Assembly: GCA_965214095.1 (NCBI GenBank)
Contig: OZ243938.1
Coordinates: 1,024,001-1,088,000, forward strand
Reading direction: 5' to 3'
DNA length: 64,000 nt
Source: Candidatus Poribacteria bacterium
GTDB lineage: Bacteria > Poribacteria > WGA-4E > WGA-3G
The translations under genes were made by a program, and so were the position numbers. Under the pieces are notes generated by a model. It saw only the letters and a program-made list of their open reading frames with translations, was not told the DNA's origin and did not search any database. Positions 21,418 to 27,087 of the stretch are shown here, piece by piece. How positions within the stretch are numbered: the stretch's first letter is position 1; every line of letters starts with the position of its first letter.

Positions 21418-23082
21418 ATGAAAAATGTCTTTCATCTAATTCTCATCTACCTATTCCTTTTCTTATCCATCTTTCCCATAAACGCAGATGAAACTGCAAT
21501 ACGTTTTACAGATCAAACACTTGCTGCAAAAATCAACTTTAGACATAACAACGGAGCTTCTGATCATAGATATCTACCTGAAACAATGGGGGCTGGTTGT
21601 CTGTTTTTTGATTTTGATAATGATGGACTCCTTGATATATTCCTTGTCAACAGTGGCAAGTCTTGTGCAAATCCGTCCAAACACCGAACAAATCCTGACG
21701 AGATGAATGTTTTATATCGCAACAACGGAGATGGCACATTCACTGATGTTTCGAAACAATCCGGATTTGAGAAAAATTACGGATTCGGAATGGGATGTAT
21801 CTCTGCTGATTATGACAATGACGGTGATGCTGACCTATATCTCACTAACTATGGAAGCAATCAACTTTACCGCAATAATGGAGATGGCACATTTACGGAT
21901 GTGACAACGCAGGCAAGTGTTGGTGATAGTCGTTGGAGTGTGAGTGCTTCATTCGGTGATTTCAACCTTGATGGATACCTTGATCTCTATGTTGTGAACT
22001 ACTTAGATTATCAGATTGAAACAGCACACCCATGTATACTTGAGGGTGTTCATATCTATTGCGGTCCACACGAATATCCTGGTGCTCAAGATACACTTTA
22101 CCAAAACAATGGTGATGGCACATTTACGGATGTGACAGACAGTGCCGGAGTACTAAATGATGGAAAGGGTTTAGGTGTCCTATTCACAGATTACAACAAC
22201 GATGGTAAACCAGATATTTTTGTTGCAAACGATGCAGTCGAAGATTTTCTATATCATAACAACGGGGATGGCACATTTAAAGATGTTGCTGTTTCTGCAG
22301 GTATTGCCTATAACTCAGAGGGACGTGCAACTGCAAGTATGGGTATTGCCAACGGTGACTACGACAATGATGGATTGTTAGATCTGTTTGTCACAAATTT
22401 CTCTTTAGAAGTGAACAGTCTCTTTCACAACGATGGTGATGGTTTCTATACAATGACTACATTTGAGACTGGACTGGCTGAACCCAGTTTCTCTCAACTC
22501 GGTTTTGGCGCACAATTTCTTGATGCTGATAATAACGGAACATTAGACCTGTTTGTTGCTAATGGACATGTGTGGGATAACGTAGCAGAAATCACCCCTT
22601 CGTTGTCCTACAAGCAGACATGTCAGTTCTTTGCTAACATGGAAGAGGGCAAATTCACAGATATATCTGAAACAGTAGGGAAATTTTTCACAAATCCCGT
22701 TGTTGCGCGTGGTACAGCAATCGGGGATTATGACAATGATGGAGATATGGATATTCTGATATCCTGCTGTGGGGACAATCCTGTTCTACTGCGAAATGAC
22801 ACCCAATTGAACAATAATTGGTTGAAAATTAAACTCGTTGGTAATACAAGCAACCGTGATGGAATTGGTTCAAAAGTCATTGTACGCTCAGGAGACTTCA
22901 CACAGATAAAAGAGATTACGTCTGGTGGTAGTTATGCATCTGGTAGCGATAATTCAATCCATTTTGGACTTGGAAATCATTCAGAAGTAGAGACAATCGA
23001 AGTAAAGTGGCAGTCTGGACATATTCAAAGACTAAAAAACATATCAGTCAATCAGGTAGTTCAAATTGAAGATAATGACTGA
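21418..23082 (+). CDS. CRTAC1-family FG-GAP repeat protein with ASPIC/UnbV domain
   Basis: DxDNDGxxD and LYxNNGDGTFTDV repeats; NRDGIG...HFGLG C-terminus. Confidence 0.92.
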   Translation: MKNVFHLILIYLFLFLSIFPINADETAIRFTDQTLAAKINFRHNNGASDHRYLPETMGAGCLFFDFDNDGLLDIFLVNSGKSCANPSKHRTNPDEMNVLYRNNGDGTFTDVSKQSGFEKNYGFGMGCISADYDNDGDADLYLTNYGSNQLYRNNGDGTFTDVTTQASVGDSRWSVSASFGDFNLDGYLDLYVVNYLDYQIETAHPCILEGVHIYCGPHEYPGAQDTLYQNNGDGTFTDVTDSAGVLNDGKGLGVLFTDYNNDGKPDIFVANDAVEDFLYHNNGDGTFKDVAVSAGIAYNSEGRATASMGIANGDYDNDGLLDLFVTNFSLEVNSLFHNDGDGFYTMTTFETGLAEPSFSQLGFGAQFLDADNNGTLDLFVANGHVWDNVAEITPSLSYKQTCQFFANMEEGKFTDISETVGKFFTNPVVARGTAIGDYDNDGDMDILISCCGDNPVLLRNDTQLNNNWLKIKLVGNTSNRDGIGSKVIVRSGDFTQIKEITSGGSYASGSDNSIHFGLGNHSEVETIEVKWQSGHIQRLKNISVNQVVQIEDND

Positions 23083-23088
23083 TTTACC

Positions 23089-23117
23089 TTGACAATTACA
23101 AAATTGAATTATAGAAT
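23089..23117 (+). promoter_or_regulatory. sigma70-type promoter
   Basis: TTGACA-17 bp-TAGAAT. Confidence 0.65.
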
Positions 23118-23141
23118 TGTAATTTAGGAGGATACAGTTTT

Positions 23142-23900
23142 ATGAAAAATCTTAGATTATTGAAAATTATATGTTATAGTGTCATTATTTGTTTATTTGC
23201 AACCTCGTCGGCAATGATAAATGTAGTATCTGCTGCCGACTCATTCGGTGACCCATTTGAAGGTGACAAATTGCATAATCCTAACTGGAATTGGCAAAAC
23301 GAACCTTCAACTTGGGATATCGGTGATACGCGCGAGGGTGCCTTATATATAAGTAGTGAACCAAACCGAAATGTGTGGGCTTCAGATGATTCACATTTCT
23401 TGTATCAAGAAACTGATGCTGACACGTTTGATGTCTCAACCCATTTCTCAGCAAAATGGGATGCTAATTCTGGTGTCAATGGACTCCTTGTGAAGAGTCC
23501 TTCAGACAATAACTGGGTTACAGTGAAATTCTGGTCACGCGATGCTGGTCCAATGGGACATATTCAGTATCAAACCAAACAAGCCGGTTTAGGACCGTCA
23601 GATGTCCAATGGAGATTTGGCGATTGGGGAGATATCCAACTGTCTTTCAGACTCAAAAAAGAAGGCAATACATACACTGCCTGGTATAAAGCAGAAGGTG
23701 ATGAAGAGTGGTTAGATATTGGAGAAGGCACCTTTGACTTGAGTCCACCACTACAACTCGGCATATATGCTGGTGTAGCAGCAGATTCAGGAAAATTAGA
23801 AGTAGAATATGAATACTTTGAAGACCATGTGAACCCAACGGATGTTGAACCTGAAGGAAAGGTTGCGACAACGTGGGGTATGGTAAAATCCCGTTATTAA
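23142..23900 (+). CDS. Secreted ConA-like (DUF1349-type) protein with TWG C-terminal motif, paralog 1
   Basis: Signal peptide, Trp-rich beta-sandwich, ends VEPEGKVATTWGMVKSRY. Confidence 0.75.
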   Translation: MKNLRLLKIICYSVIICLFATSSAMINVVSAADSFGDPFEGDKLHNPNWNWQNEPSTWDIGDTREGALYISSEPNRNVWASDDSHFLYQETDADTFDVSTHFSAKWDANSGVNGLLVKSPSDNNWVTVKFWSRDAGPMGHIQYQTKQAGLGPSDVQWRFGDWGDIQLSFRLKKEGNTYTAWYKAEGDEEWLDIGEGTFDLSPPLQLGIYAGVAADSGKLEVEYEYFEDHVNPTDVEPEGKVATTWGMVKSRY

Positions 23901-23909
23901 AATAAATTT

Positions 23910-23946
23910 TGTGGGGTTGACTTTAAGTTTGCCCCACCTATATTTC
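23910..23946 (+). terminator. Probable intrinsic terminator
   Basis: GTGGGG...CCCCAC stem followed by a T-rich tail. Confidence 0.45.
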
Positions 23947-23952
23947 ACTTAA

Positions 23953-24368
23953 CGATCTTCCGTCAAATCCCCATGCTTTAGCTTGTGGGATGTAGACGGA
24001 ACCAACGATGTGATGGACAGCACGAAATGTCCGGCGAAAGTGGAAATAAACCCCATCGCTACAAACCCTATAAAGTTGGTGGATAGCGTCCATATCAAGC
24101 CAATGCGTCTAACAAACGCAGACTGGAATGCGTGAGCGGAGGAGACCCCTCCCGAAGTCTACGGACTTGTCGCGCGGCGTGCCTGGTAGGAGGGGCAGCT
24201 GTAAAATGGGTGGAAACAGAGCCAACCCACGACGTTAGCGAAAAACGAATCAAACAGGCAGGCTTAGCTGCCTAAAGTGGAGATGACGTGAGACGGGTGA
24301 TCCTTTTGGAGAAACGCTGTTGTCAAGGAAACACAAGCCCCAACCTTTAGGTTGTGGGTCACTATGAC
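23953..24368 (+). mobile_element. Non-autonomous IS200/IS605 (TnpB-derived) element with omegaRNA-like scaffold
   Basis: Left hairpin CCCCATGCTTTAGCTTGTGGG, right hairpin AAGCCCCAACCTTTAGGTTGTGGGTCACTATGAC; 40-aa remnant 24013-24135 ending NADWNA. Confidence 0.75.
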
Positions 24369-24457
24369 TTACTTATCAATATTCTTGAATACAATAATGT
24401 AAGTTTGTTGCTTTAGTAATAGATCAATTTACAAATATGAATATGAGGTAACTTTTA

Positions 24458-25216
24458 ATGAAAAACATGACATTTGTGAAAATTGTTTGTATGAGTGCTA
24501 TAATCTGTTTATTTACATCAATGTCTGGCTTGATATTCACTGCGAATGCAGCTGATTCATTTGGCGACCCGTTTGATGGAAACAAACTACAAAATCCTAA
24601 TTGGGAATGGCAAAACGAACCACCGAAATGGGATGTTGGAGAAACAGTTGATGGACGTTTATACATAGACTGTGAACCGAATCGAAATCTATGGGCTAAT
24701 GATGCATCTCATTTTCTGTATCAGGTCACCGATACTGATATGTTTGATGTCTCAACACATTTCCGTGCTAAATGGGATACCAATTCAGGTGTCAATGGAA
24801 TCCTCGTGAAAAGTCCTGGAGATAATAACTGGGTAACTATTAAATTTTGGGGTAGAGATGCTGGTGCTAAAGGACACATTCAGTACCAAACCCGTGAAGC
24901 AGGCATGGGACCTCTAGATATCCAATGGAGATTTGGTGATTGGGGTGACATTGAAATGTCAATGCGACTCAAGAAAGATGGTGATACATACACTGCATGG
25001 TATAAAGCTGAAGGTGATGATGATTGGATGGATATCGGTGAAGGCACTTTTGCATTGACTCCTCCACTTTGGTTGGGTGTATATGCAGGTGTTGCTGACC
25101 CCGCTGGTAATCTTGAGGTAGAATACGAATACTTCACAGACAATATGAACCCCTTCCCCGTTGAACCTGGCGGTAAAGCGACCACCACTTGGGGTGCTGT
25201 AAAAACTCGTTACTAA
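24458..25216 (+). CDS. Secreted ConA-like (DUF1349-type) protein with TWG C-terminal motif, paralog 2
   Basis: Same length (252 aa) as and collinear with 23142-23900; ends VEPGGKATTTWGAVKTRY. Confidence 0.75.
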   Translation: MKNMTFVKIVCMSAIICLFTSMSGLIFTANAADSFGDPFDGNKLQNPNWEWQNEPPKWDVGETVDGRLYIDCEPNRNLWANDASHFLYQVTDTDMFDVSTHFRAKWDTNSGVNGILVKSPGDNNWVTIKFWGRDAGAKGHIQYQTREAGMGPLDIQWRFGDWGDIEMSMRLKKDGDTYTAWYKAEGDDDWMDIGEGTFALTPPLWLGVYAGVADPAGNLEVEYEYFTDNMNPFPVEPGGKATTTWGAVKTRY

Positions 25217-25231
25217 GGAGGGATATAGACT

Positions 25232-27087
25232 ATGCGATGCAGTGTATTCATACTTCTATGTTTCTGTGTCGTTTCTCCGTTATTTGCGGATAATTTCGTA
25301 GATAGAAGTGCAATCGCAGGGGTTCATCAACGTGAAACGCCAATTGATGAAAATTCCGGGACTTGGATGGGTCCCGGTGCTGCCGCTGCAGATTATGATA
25401 ACGACGGCTGTTGGATAGATATTTTCGTTGTCGGAGATGGTGGTCTACCAAATGCACTTTACCATAATAATAGAAATGGAACATTCCAGGATATTGCTGA
25501 AAAAGCAGGCGTTGCCAACACACCAAATGGACGTGGATGCGTCTGGTTAGACTACAATAATGATGGTTGGCGCGATCTCTTTGTATCCTGTGATGGTCCA
25601 AATTTTCTATTCAAGAACAACGGAGACTGCACCTTCACAGATGTAAGCAAACAGGCGGGTGTCACAGATGCACAACACGGCACAAGTATTGCAGTCGCTG
25701 ATTATGACCACGATGGTTGGTTGGATATCTATGTTGCAAATTGGGGACGTCCAGCATCGCTTTTAGTTTTTGATCCTGCTCCCAGAATTAATGTACTGTA
25801 TCGAAATAAAGGCGACGGCACTTTTGAGGATGTTGCAAGGAAGTTGGTGTTGATGATGGCGGAATCGCTTGGGGTGCAATCTTTTTTGATTACGATGGAG
25901 ATACATGGGCAGATCTGTTTGTAGCAAACGATCACGGACCTGATAAACTTTATCGTAACAAAGGGGACGGCACTTTTGAGGATGTCTCCGAACAATCTGG
26001 AATTGTTACACTCATCAGAGGAAAACCAACAGGTGCTATGGGACTCTGTGTCGGTGATTATGATAACGACGCTGATCTCGACCTATTCGTTACCAACTAT
26101 GACGAAGACCTTCTCTGGCGAAACAACGGCGATGGCACTTTTACAAATGTTGCCGAAGAAGCTGGTGTCGCAAACGTAGGCGTTGGTTGGTATGCCAGTT
26201 TCATTGACTATGACAATGATGGATTCCGCGATCTCTATGTCGTCAATGGTGATGTAGATAATTCGCAAAAGACAAACCTTAACCGTCTCTATCATAACAA
26301 TCGTGACGGCACGTTTGTTGATCGTGCAGAAGGTCTCGGTGTTACCTCTAATGCAGTCGCACGCGGTGCAACATCAGGCGATTTTGACAATGACCGTGAT
26401 GTTGATTTCTTCATCGTCAATAACACTGGCTATACGCTACTCAAAAACGAACTTGAAGATGACACACGACGAATTCAAGCTGACCATAAACGTATCCTAA
26501 TTCGGTTGATTGGTACAGAAAGCAATCGAGATGGAATTGGAACACGTGTGACTGTTAAATATGGCAACCATGTTCAGACACAAGAGTTAATTTGTGGTAC
26601 AGGTTTCTTAGGCAGTGATAGTTTAGAACTTGAATTTGGTCTTGGAACAGGTTATCCTTCGGGTAACATTACCTTAGAATGGCCCTCTGGTATAGTTGAG
26701 ACTTATGAATTCAGTTATGGCCATGATGTATATATATTCACTGAAGCTCAAGATGTGGTTACATCTGTTGAACCGCATGGAAAACAGTCTATAACATGGG
26801 GAAGACTAAAAACTGTTGAGGTATTTCAAAACTATCCTAATCCATTTAACCCTGAAACATGGATTCCATACAAACTAAACGAATCCAGTGATGTGAAAAT
26901 ATCCATCTATTCTCCAGTTGGTGAATTGGTGAGAACATTTGACCTTGGACTCCAGAATCAAGGTGAGAAAAAGTTTTATTGGGATGGTAAAAATGTAAAT
27001 GGTGAATCTGTTGCCAGTGGTATCTATTTCTATCAATTTGATGCGGGAAACACCAAGATTGTGCGTAAAATGTGGTTAATGAAATAG
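25232..27087 (+). pseudogene. FG-GAP/ASPIC protein with TWG motif and FlgD-Ig/T9SS-like C-terminal domain, split by a 1-bp frameshift near 25837
   Basis: GTFEDVA continues as EVGVDDGGIAWGAIFFDYDGD in the frame of ORF 26038-27087; QNYPNPFNPETWIPY tail. Confidence 0.8.

Follow-up and report, generated by a model that had tools for sequence, protein, structure and literature searches.

An element without genes between two paralogs

In the genome of a sponge-symbiont bacterium, Candidatus Poribacteria, two genes for paralogous proteins of 252 aa are separated by a short stretch that bears the end hairpins of an IS200/IS605 transposon and carries no transposase gene. This locus raises the question of what such a gene-less stretch is, how it could be moved, and what its GC-rich interior does. 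We analyzed the stretch within a window of 64,000 nt (positions 1,024,001 to 1,088,000 of contig OZ243938.1), to which all coordinates refer; features lie on the + strand unless stated otherwise. An earlier note, made from the letters alone, had proposed a protein-less TnpB element that retains an omega-RNA scaffold and loads a TnpB in trans. The core of that reading, a protein-less IS200/IS605 element keeping an omega-RNA scaffold, was found to hold; the supply of TnpB in trans and the use of a guide would be the probable further steps.

Boundaries, ends and copies of the element

The whole non-autonomous element occupies 416 nt (23953-24368) and is a protein-less IS200/IS605 derivative (PATE), as delimited by an empty site and by copies with different flanks. 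The empty site was found in a close relative, genome G021, which has flanks 95% identical to those of the window without the element between them, and in which ...CACTTAA runs directly into TTACAT... (in full, ...TTTCACTTAA followed by TTACATAATCAATATT...). From this vacant site it follows that the element comprises 23953-24368, that the TTAA at 23949-23952 is external to it, and that the insertion was scarless. Neither a target duplication nor terminal inverted repeats were detected, the insertion being 3' of a short target motif. The TTAA had been suggested as a possible target motif and is now placed outside the element as its target or transposon-adjacent motif by the G021 site and by the flanks of other copies, which are likewise TTAA and rarely TTGA or TTAG. 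The left flank reads TTAAC in all copies but one (TTGAT) and the right terminus reads ...CTATGAC, with flanks that are otherwise unrelated.

Hairpins had been claimed at both ends. The left one stands as drawn: at 23958-24001 lies a subterminal hairpin that, by its fold and its likeness to tnpB left ends, would be a DNA signal for a Y1 transposase, with a DNA fold of -11.3 kcal/mol (z -4.2) that none of 200 shuffles equaled. The right one is also present, narrowed to 24338-24358 inside the 24335-24368 first proposed; its single-sequence fold is no better than that of shuffles (z -0.41), and it covaries across copies (helix 21 of the consensus described below). The absence of a transposase was borne out, as the longest open reading frames in the element are of at most 52 aa and the 50-aa frame of the earlier note has no Pfam match. 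So was the GC-rich character of the interior, with a GC content of 0.50-0.57 between 24000 and 24300 versus about 0.41 for the contig.

The element has moved and multiplied in two genera of one family, and relatives contain at least 30 more copies, each at different flanks. A search with the whole element gave some match in 32 of 61 genomes, its own genome (G000) counted; matches were found in 31 of the 36 genomes of the same genus and in none of 24 genomes from three other families of the order.

An omega-RNA-type tail shared with resident tnpB elements

When 23901-24457 was compared by BLAST to its own genome (5.2 Mb in 4 contigs), the stretch fell into three parts. The first, 23949-23999, matched eight other left ends at 80-98% identity, these being the left ends of tnpB elements and of other short elements of the genome. 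The middle of the element had one other good match, at 80%, and the last part, 24249-24368, had three matches at 98-99%. The right-end matches lie about 1.26 kb downstream of left-end matches and thereby delimit three elements of 1.38 kb, each with an intact tnpB gene. The element of the window is 80-92% identical to these three over the left 51 nt and identical at 119/120 and 118/120 positions over the last 120 nt. Thus, a tnpB parent with the same ends, for which the earlier note had advised a search, is present in the same genome, and the TTAA flank is found on full tnpB elements as well. The parent TnpB is of 370 aa when counted from the first ATG, matches the OrfB_IS605 and TNB domains of Pfam, has readable DFG, FETLN and DRDINAA motifs, and ends in ...HDRDINAAINIKQAGLAA.

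Altogether the genome holds 22 tnpB loci, five RRXRR loci, and five matches to Y1 transposase (PF01797), four of them full length. The elements that bear tnpA have end hairpins with the same CTTTAG loop, but with sequences that are related to, and different from, the ends of the element. Other protein-less elements of this genome were also observed, which have the same kind of ends around unrelated interiors that are AT-rich or promoter-bearing.

The 3' end of tnpB and the right end of the element together give rise to the omega-RNA of TnpB, which takes its guide from the flank and includes the right-end hairpin in its scaffold. An omega-RNA-type tail of this kind, common to the intact tnpB elements in sequence and in consensus structure, is found at 24249-24368. 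It contains a hairpin (24257-24272), the motif AAAGTGGAG, a stem (24282-24287/24319-24324) and the terminal ...CTATGAC. Since these last 120 nt are the omega-RNA part of a tnpB element, the 3' flank (TTACTTATCAATATT...), which begins right after the right end at 24368, is the would-be guide (24369-24388, TTACTTATCAATATTCTTGA). The guide proposed earlier, TTACTTATCAAT..., is indeed identical to the sequence that follows TTAA at the vacant site; its role as a guide would be as in the known TnpB mechanism. A further proposal, which equated the GC-rich interior with the guide scaffold of TnpB, had to be given up, because the scaffold held in common with tnpB elements is restricted to the last 120 nt.

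Vestiges of the TnpB protein

A 40-aa remnant of TnpB had been seen in the frame 23983-24135, in which the letters VEINP and NADWNA were taken as remains of the RuvC-III region. The letters are present in that frame, and in one derived clade of TnpB the RuvC-III motif is NADxN, according to the available part of PMC10691335. By contrast, the best BLASTP alignment of the frame to the parent TnpB was at E 0.31 and to unrelated residues (119-145), a Pfam search of the frame gave no match, the RuvC-III motif of the parent is DRDINAA and not NADxN, and upstream of NADWNA the frame is broken between copies by indels whose lengths are not divisible by three. The NADWNA codons (24115-24132) fall inside the conserved structured domain described below, in a nucleotide stretch that is conserved among copies, ACTGGAAYRCGTGAGCGG (ACUGGAAYRCGUGAGCGG as RNA). 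These comparisons refute the descent of this frame from TnpB, with NADWNA as its RuvC-III motif, which is in our judgment hardly credible.

A true remnant of tnpB was found further downstream. The open reading frame 24132-24275 aligned by BLASTP with residues 351-370 of the parent TnpB (11/20 identical, E 0.005), which identifies 24216-24275 as the remnant of the tnpB C-terminus (...T.HD...IKQAGLAA plus stop). This C-terminus is kept in 23 of 24 sampled full-length tails, the remaining one being without such a reading frame.

Covariation in the interior and the tail

Between the left end and the tail lies a conserved structured domain (24008-24248) that consists of the 5' strand of helix P0 and helices P1-P10, as defined by covariation and by a covariance model (R1). 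An alignment of 30 distinct copies with A-type ends was folded with RNAalifold, which gave 93 pairs in 21 helices, helices 1-14 in the interior and helices 15-21 in the tail. In the proposed structure 96.5% of the cells were paired versus 34-41% when the partners were slid by 1-3 columns, and 30 of the 93 pairs had changed on both sides versus 0-9 when slid, values that none of 500 shuffles reached, with controls that are weakened by the relatedness of the copies and by the derivation of the structure from the same alignment. Compensatory changes included GGACA/TGTCC versus GGGCA/TGCCC and TGGGT/ACCCA versus TAGGT/ACCTA. Given these changes and the size of the gap to the controls, a selected fold is a reasonable reading. 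Invariant G-U pairs, which would be A-C on the other strand, place this fold on the tnpB-sense (+) strand. Taken together, these results make it reasonable to read the interior of about 240 nt as a strongly covarying structured domain of the + strand; covariation, one of the observations by which the earlier reading was to be judged, is strong and counts in its favor, as do the intact tnpB elements with the same ends and the coverage by RNA-library contigs (see below). When single sequences were folded, the + strand gave z -1.42 and the minus strand z +0.41, neither of which is informative alone.

The closing helix P0 (helix 1) pairs 24009-24012 with the CACA of the tail at 24332-24335, beside the right-end hairpin; being invariant, this helix carries no covariation evidence. 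It is followed by two 5' hairpins, by a core of seven helices closed by GUUG/CGAC in the consensus fold (24075-24233), and then by the tail, which begins with a hairpin spanning the final codons of tnpB and continues with AAAGUGGAG, a variable stem and, finally, the right-end hairpin. Loops and junctions are nearly invariant across copies. Two of the three stems that had been described as intact, TGGGT/ACCCA (helix 14) and GGCAG/CTGCC (helix 17), were found to covary. The third, CCCCTCC/GGAGGGG, is contradicted by the consensus fold and the pair counts, in which GGAG has CTCC as its local partner and a different hairpin is closed by GGGGCAGC. A long-range TCCAT/GTGGA pairing of the first consensus fold, broken in two copies, was replaced because these copies keep a local hairpin instead through double changes. 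The same helices are preserved, via wobble pairs or full swaps (e.g., GAAGUC/GACUU versus AGAGA/UCUCU), in the elements of the other end type, as judged by eye and from the consensus fold of these elements.

The extent of compensation bears on the view of the element as a decaying relic, that is, a deletion derivative of a tnpB element still moved by TnpA, of which the interior and the tail are functionless. The lack of a coding frame, the broken tnpB C-terminus and the commonness of PATEs as by-products of IS200/IS605 in the available accounts are as this view would have it. Decay is at odds with compensatory changes in 30 of 93 pairs, with a P9-P10 core conserved in diverged subfamilies and two genera, and with a tail that keeps the hairpin 24257-24272 and the stem 24282-24324 and that, in three cases, is nearly identical to resident tnpB elements. 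We disfavor the relic as very unlikely.

The fold may alternatively act as single-stranded DNA, whereby a compact top-strand fold would place the left and right ends close to each other and thus promote excision and integration by TnpA. The strand that covaries is the top strand, P0 joins the start of the interior to bases adjoining the right-end hairpin, and IS200/IS605 elements move as single-stranded top-strand DNA, as set out in the available part of PMC10055086. However, many pairs are invariant G-U, which would be G-T in DNA and weak, and the unpaired loops and junctions are near-invariant over diverged subfamilies, as expected for tertiary or protein contacts of an RNA. RNA-library contigs, moreover, cover the domain (see below). 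The presence of the same kind of ends around unrelated interiors in other protein-less elements also indicates that no such fold is needed for mobility. An action as DNA is thus regarded as quite unlikely.

Comparison of the interior to known RNA families

No Rfam match was detected at E up to 1 in 23000-25500 or in seven related loci, and the element had no match to curated omega-RNA or IS605-orfB RNA families. With the element alone and E up to 10, the sole Rfam match was to sX5 (13.4 bits, minus strand), which was taken as chance. Homology of the interior to the 3' coding region of tnpB was rejected as unsupported, since a local alignment score of 58.75 compares to 55.0 ± 6.3 for shuffles, 127 of 500 of which scored as high; short colinear matches were seen by eye (ATGGACAGC, ACAAACCCT, GACTGGA and CACGA), with a score not above that of other parts of the gene. 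An identity as IscB/IsrB omega-RNA (HEARO) was likewise rejected. In the available descriptions the HEARO scaffold lies upstream of iscB at the right end, and its direction would be from the right-end flank into the element, antisense to a TnpB omega-RNA. The element gave no Rfam match of this type, its G-U pairs point to the tnpB-sense strand, and its interior does not resemble any of the five RRXRR loci of the genome.

A mosaic of interior and tail with separate histories

The copy in the window and a copy in genome G032 are 99.6% identical over the first 230 nt and 75.5% identical over the tail, and two copies within G032 are 99.1% identical in the interior versus 75.5% in the tail. This contrast reveals different histories for interior and tail. 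The tails of PATEs are close to those of full tnpB elements, with identities of 98.9% (own genome), 97.8% (G022) and 93% (G029). For 8 of 14 PATE tails whose own genomes had been sampled for full elements, the best full-length match was in another genome, as counted over 23 full-length tails with 1-3 full elements sampled per genome. The switch point falls in ATCAAAC-hairpin-AAAGTGGAG, a stretch that hardly varies among either PATEs or full tnpB elements, and the two tnpB families whose tails occur on the domain encode proteins that are 40% identical.

Distribution of the interior domain

Five short elements of the own genome share the interior, two with the A-type ends of the element in the window and three with ends of another tnpB family (one truncated). 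A profile of the interior detected five places only in this genome, none of them in the 22 tnpB loci. A degenerate 25-mer of the core, searched against one genome per species in 185,579 species, returned 42 stretches. All of them were from Poribacteria, and each belongs to a short element whose right end is no more than about 700 nt away and which contains no frame of tnpB size. A looser two-part pattern, applied to metagenome contigs, returned 5 stretches, again all short elements. Among 151 genomes of the phylum, the covariance model R1, built on the core, had matches in 24, all from one family; 13 of 37 genomes of the genus of the window and 10 of 57 genomes of a second genus were matched, compared to none of 51 genomes in eight other families. 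The seven weakest or most divergent R1 matches were inspected and found to be protein-less short elements with other end types, which keep the P9-junction-P10 core through compensations. By the own-genome profile, the 25-mer, the metagenome pattern and the R1 search of 151 genomes, no protein-bearing parent that holds the domain was detected, and as far as such sequence searches reach the domain is found only in gene-less elements of one Poribacteria family.

RNA-library coverage

Contigs from RNA libraries of two studies (sponge data) cover 23958-24369, in a form that does not give strand, 5' end or level and that may include DNA carry-over. One of these studies includes two runs with a contig that reaches from 23958 to 24369 and shows 9-10 differences. 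The contig extends 9-11 nt into the flank of a G032 copy that is 97% identical, and then continues into what we take to be sequencing adapter. Adapter read-through at the contig end implies that many fragments ended there, and this would be consistent with a discrete RNA terminus some 10 nt beyond the right end. Guides of TnpB are roughly 16 nt, and the overhang of 9-11 nt is shorter. A transcript had been predicted to end 15-20 nt past 24368: coverage by RNA-library contigs was found, and the end that was detected, in the 97% identical copy, is close to the predicted one without falling in that range. Contig ends at 23958, 24249 and 24277 coincide with points of copy divergence and were rejected as RNA ends. 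Differences in RNA depth between parts of the element were left unused, as they sum over many copies and organisms.

Apparent insertion into host 5' leaders

Upstream of the element are a gene for the first paralog (252 aa; 23142-23900, from the list of open reading frames) and a host hairpin (23911-23937) predicted by folding and of presumed function. Overlapping this hairpin, a sigma-70-like promoter match at the level of consensus (TTGACT-16-TATATT; 23917-23944) would read into the element. The downstream paralog (252 aa; 24458-25216) is co-oriented, and the element is now located in its 5' leader, in the same orientation and 89 nt ahead of the start codon, in agreement with the location given in the earlier note. 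Both paralogs have weak Pfam matches to the concanavalin-like families GH43_C2 and DUF1349.

The surroundings of 47 insertion sites were surveyed by a crude test for open reading frames and Shine-Dalgarno motifs on raw flanks. A co-oriented start was found at most 120 nt after the right end at 30 of the sites, 22 of these with a Shine-Dalgarno-like motif. A start diverging from the left end was found at 12 of the sites, one with such a motif. This survey suggests that the elements, which appear to be promoter-less, sit in sense in host 5' leaders. Insertion of IS200/IS605 elements has a strand bias relative to replication, and a replication-linked bias of this type may contribute to the bias in orientation.

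The orientation survey would also be compatible with an interior that forms no part of a TnpB guide RNA and is an RNA cargo in its own right (such as a small RNA, a regulatory leader or a processing ribozyme), spread via IS200/IS605 ends and acting on the host transcript. Such a cargo would be expected to keep its own history while tails swap, as the domain does. The domain occurs with tails of at least two TnpB families (40% identical) and with further end types, no tnpB locus of its own genome contains it, its loops and junctions are nearly invariant, and co-oriented starts after the right end exceed diverging ones (30 versus 12 of 47 sites, with 22 versus 1 Shine-Dalgarno-like motifs). By contrast, the domain was never found without an omega-RNA-type tail and right end, and its first bases pair with the CACA by the right-end hairpin, in a helix that does not covary, such that it would fold together with the tail. 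No known ribozyme or riboswitch family was matched in Rfam, and the bias in orientation could stem from the replication-related strand bias of IS200/IS605. A free-standing cargo is on balance unlikely.

Proposed mechanism

The best explanation, and one that we consider probable, is that the element is a mobile PATE with an omega-RNA tail that depends on TnpA and TnpB in trans and that carries a further structured domain on the 5' side. A Y1 TnpA encoded elsewhere in the genome would move the element as single-stranded DNA. The element would be transcribed in sense and, given its position in the leader ahead of the downstream gene, the likely source here is the host promoter-like site at 23917-23944. 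The 3' part of the RNA, together with about 10-20 nt of flank as guide, would load the resident 370-aa TnpB in trans. After excision, this TnpB would cut the vacated TTAA plus TTACTTATCAAT... site, and recombination would restore the element. Such a cycle would follow the published mechanism, in which TnpA excises single-stranded DNA and reseals the donor, guided TnpB cuts the resealed TAM and flank, and recombination restores the element (PMC10055086, in its available part). Counting against the explanation are the lack of an Rfam match, the overhang of 9-11 nt, the 8 of 14 PATE tails with their best full-length match in another genome of the sample, and the differing ends of the elements that bear tnpA.

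Within this explanation, the interior would be a 5' extension of the same RNA that stands in for the omega-RNA portion located inside the tnpB frame of full elements, and it may serve in folding, in stability or in binding TnpB or a host factor. We prefer this 5'-extension reading of the interior with less confidence than the explanation as a whole. The interior has no detectable likeness to the 3' coding region of tnpB and is absent from the 22 tnpB loci, which renders its role in a guide RNA a conjecture.

Relation to known systems

The TnpB omega-RNA, or reRNA, of IS200/IS605 elements such as ISDra2 is reportedly the subject of Karvelis et al. 2021 and of cryo-EM structures from 2023. The Poribacteria element is like an ISDra2-type omega-RNA in its hairpin over the last tnpB codons, its right-end hairpin in the scaffold and its would-be guide from the flank, and unlike it in that the part inside the tnpB coding region is replaced by an unrelated, larger domain.

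Group I introns end in G, whereas the last base of the element is C. By eye the element has no group I core sequence elements, and no Intron_gpI match was detected on 461 nt at E up to 10 with the general Rfam model, as distinct from the subclass models of the IStron paper. In these respects it differs from IStrons, with which, to judge from the available part of the report (bioRxiv 10.1101/2023.11.20.567912), it shares a large structured RNA behind the left end, an omega-RNA at the right end and the occurrence of protein-less derivatives.

PATEs have been noted in Geobacillus stearothermophilus and Clostridioides difficile (PMC10055086; bioRxiv 10.1101/2023.11.20.567912, both in their available parts) and "often encode omega-RNAs" that need TnpB in trans (PMC10055086). 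Like these, the Poribacteria elements are short and protein-less, have end hairpins in common with tnpB elements, insert by a short target motif, would depend on TnpA in trans, and carry a putative omega-RNA that would need TnpB in trans. They differ by the added covarying interior (about 240 nt), which the parent tnpB elements lack and for which the available portions of these reports describe no counterpart in PATEs. Standalone omega-RNAs of OMEGA systems work in trans, with a biological role that is stated to be unknown (PMC10691335, available in part, citing Altae-Tran et al. 2021). As far as that account extends, these too are mobilized guide loci without effector or transposase that occur in genomes with effector-bearing loci. 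Their function in trans is known, by contrast to the Poribacteria element, for which such function would be expected by analogy; the Poribacteria element is also distinct in being of the TnpB type, with the guide 3' of the right end, an extra 5' domain and swapped tails.

Thus, standalone omega-RNAs and PATEs carrying omega-RNAs are already in print, in the sources available to this extent, and the element of the window conforms to that kind in each feature that the analysis covered. What goes beyond the described cases is an additional domain on the 5' side, recombined onto several different tails. A literature search returned no work on TnpB in Poribacteria.

Significance for Poribacteria

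The reach of these results is limited to one family of uncultured sponge symbionts, and the idea of a PATE with an omega-RNA is already published. Within that family the elements form a natural series, in which dozens of copies carry several swapped guide tails on one 5' domain and intact TnpBs of the cognate type reside alongside them. Further assets are the vacant site of the close relative G021 and the RNA-library contigs in public sponge data. Questions that can be tested with this series are which part of a TnpB guide RNA is replaceable, whether elements without genes parasitize several TnpB and TnpA lineages, and whether the domain is active in itself. Should it improve the stability or loading of the guide, the domain could be of use in TnpB-based editing tools.

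More tentatively, the interior may represent a new class of structured RNA that belongs only to protein-less transposons, a portable 5' domain that can be recombined onto different TnpB guide tails; we find this possible, though doubtful. Its roles could possibly be to release, stabilize or load the guide from host 5' leaders, as a processing ribozyme, a chaperone-like scaffold or a universal adaptor to TnpB or to a host factor. If this portable-domain reading is true, gene-less elements would compete with, or outnumber, their protein-coding parents.

Insertion of conserved-interior elements relative to genes

Elements with the conserved interior (window 24008-24248 in the copy under study) were surveyed at 47 insertion sites, consisting of the loci with the core motif among L002-L144 (extracted from the genome of the window and its relatives) plus three further own-genome copies. 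By this crude, ORF-based counting, an ORF was found to start at most 120 nt past the right end at 30 of the 47 sites, and a Shine-Dalgarno-like motif was detected at 22 of these 30. At 12 of the 47 sites, an ORF begins on the left-end side and reads away from the element, with a Shine-Dalgarno-like motif in one case. Elements with the conserved interior tend, by this crude count of 47 sites, to be placed in sense directly upstream of a gene start.

The element of the window is flanked by tandem 252-aa paralogs (23142-23900 and 24458-25216) whose N-termini are hydrophobic and whose Pfam matches, to the concanavalin-like families GH43_C2 and DUF1349, are weak; the two genes share 73% identity across about 400 nt. 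In many genomes of the genus, a pair of tandem matches was likewise found on a single contig, separated by about 0.5 kb.

Other protein-less and truncated elements

The genome of the window (G000) was found to carry a second family of protein-less elements, with 4 copies of about 413 nt each: one at L009:1177-1589 (contig C1:781022-781434) and others with ends at C1:959174 (minus), 3279134 (minus) and 5082566 (plus). This family has an omega-RNA-like tail with a right end of ...CTATGAC and a longest frame of 63 aa, but its interior differs from that of the window element and includes its own promoter-like site (TTGACA-17-TAAAAT) immediately inside the left end. A third kind, a protein-less element of 429 nt on the minus strand at C1:3131649-3132077 (within L006 and L017), is 98% and 95% identical to the window element at its left and right ends, respectively, whereas its interior is AT-rich and unrelated. 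Downstream of the core motif at 2501 in locus L087 (minus strand), at a distance of about 300-450 nt, a truncated element belonging to the other end type passes into tandemly repeated units that resemble GGCGATTGCGATGA. Contig C2 of G000 (32,066 bases) has a GC content of 0.64, compared to 0.39-0.41 for the other three contigs, and may be a foreign or misbinned assembly piece.

The guide-RNA tail and the TnpB C-terminus

In RNA-library run X9 (sponge data), a 101-nt contig includes window 24249-24295, the stretch common to all tails; word depth was about 3300 for this shared-tail contig compared to about 60 for interior contigs, values that sum over many elements and organisms. The TnpB C-terminus was compared using the end of the intact resident tnpB (L003:1480-1527) and 23 full-length tails with a readable frame. 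Among these 23 family members, the last six residues are QAGLAA in 22 and QAGVAA in the remaining one, and the codons of these residues form the guide-RNA tail hairpin GGCAGGCTTAGCTGCC. The same bases look to be under a double constraint, as protein and as RNA.
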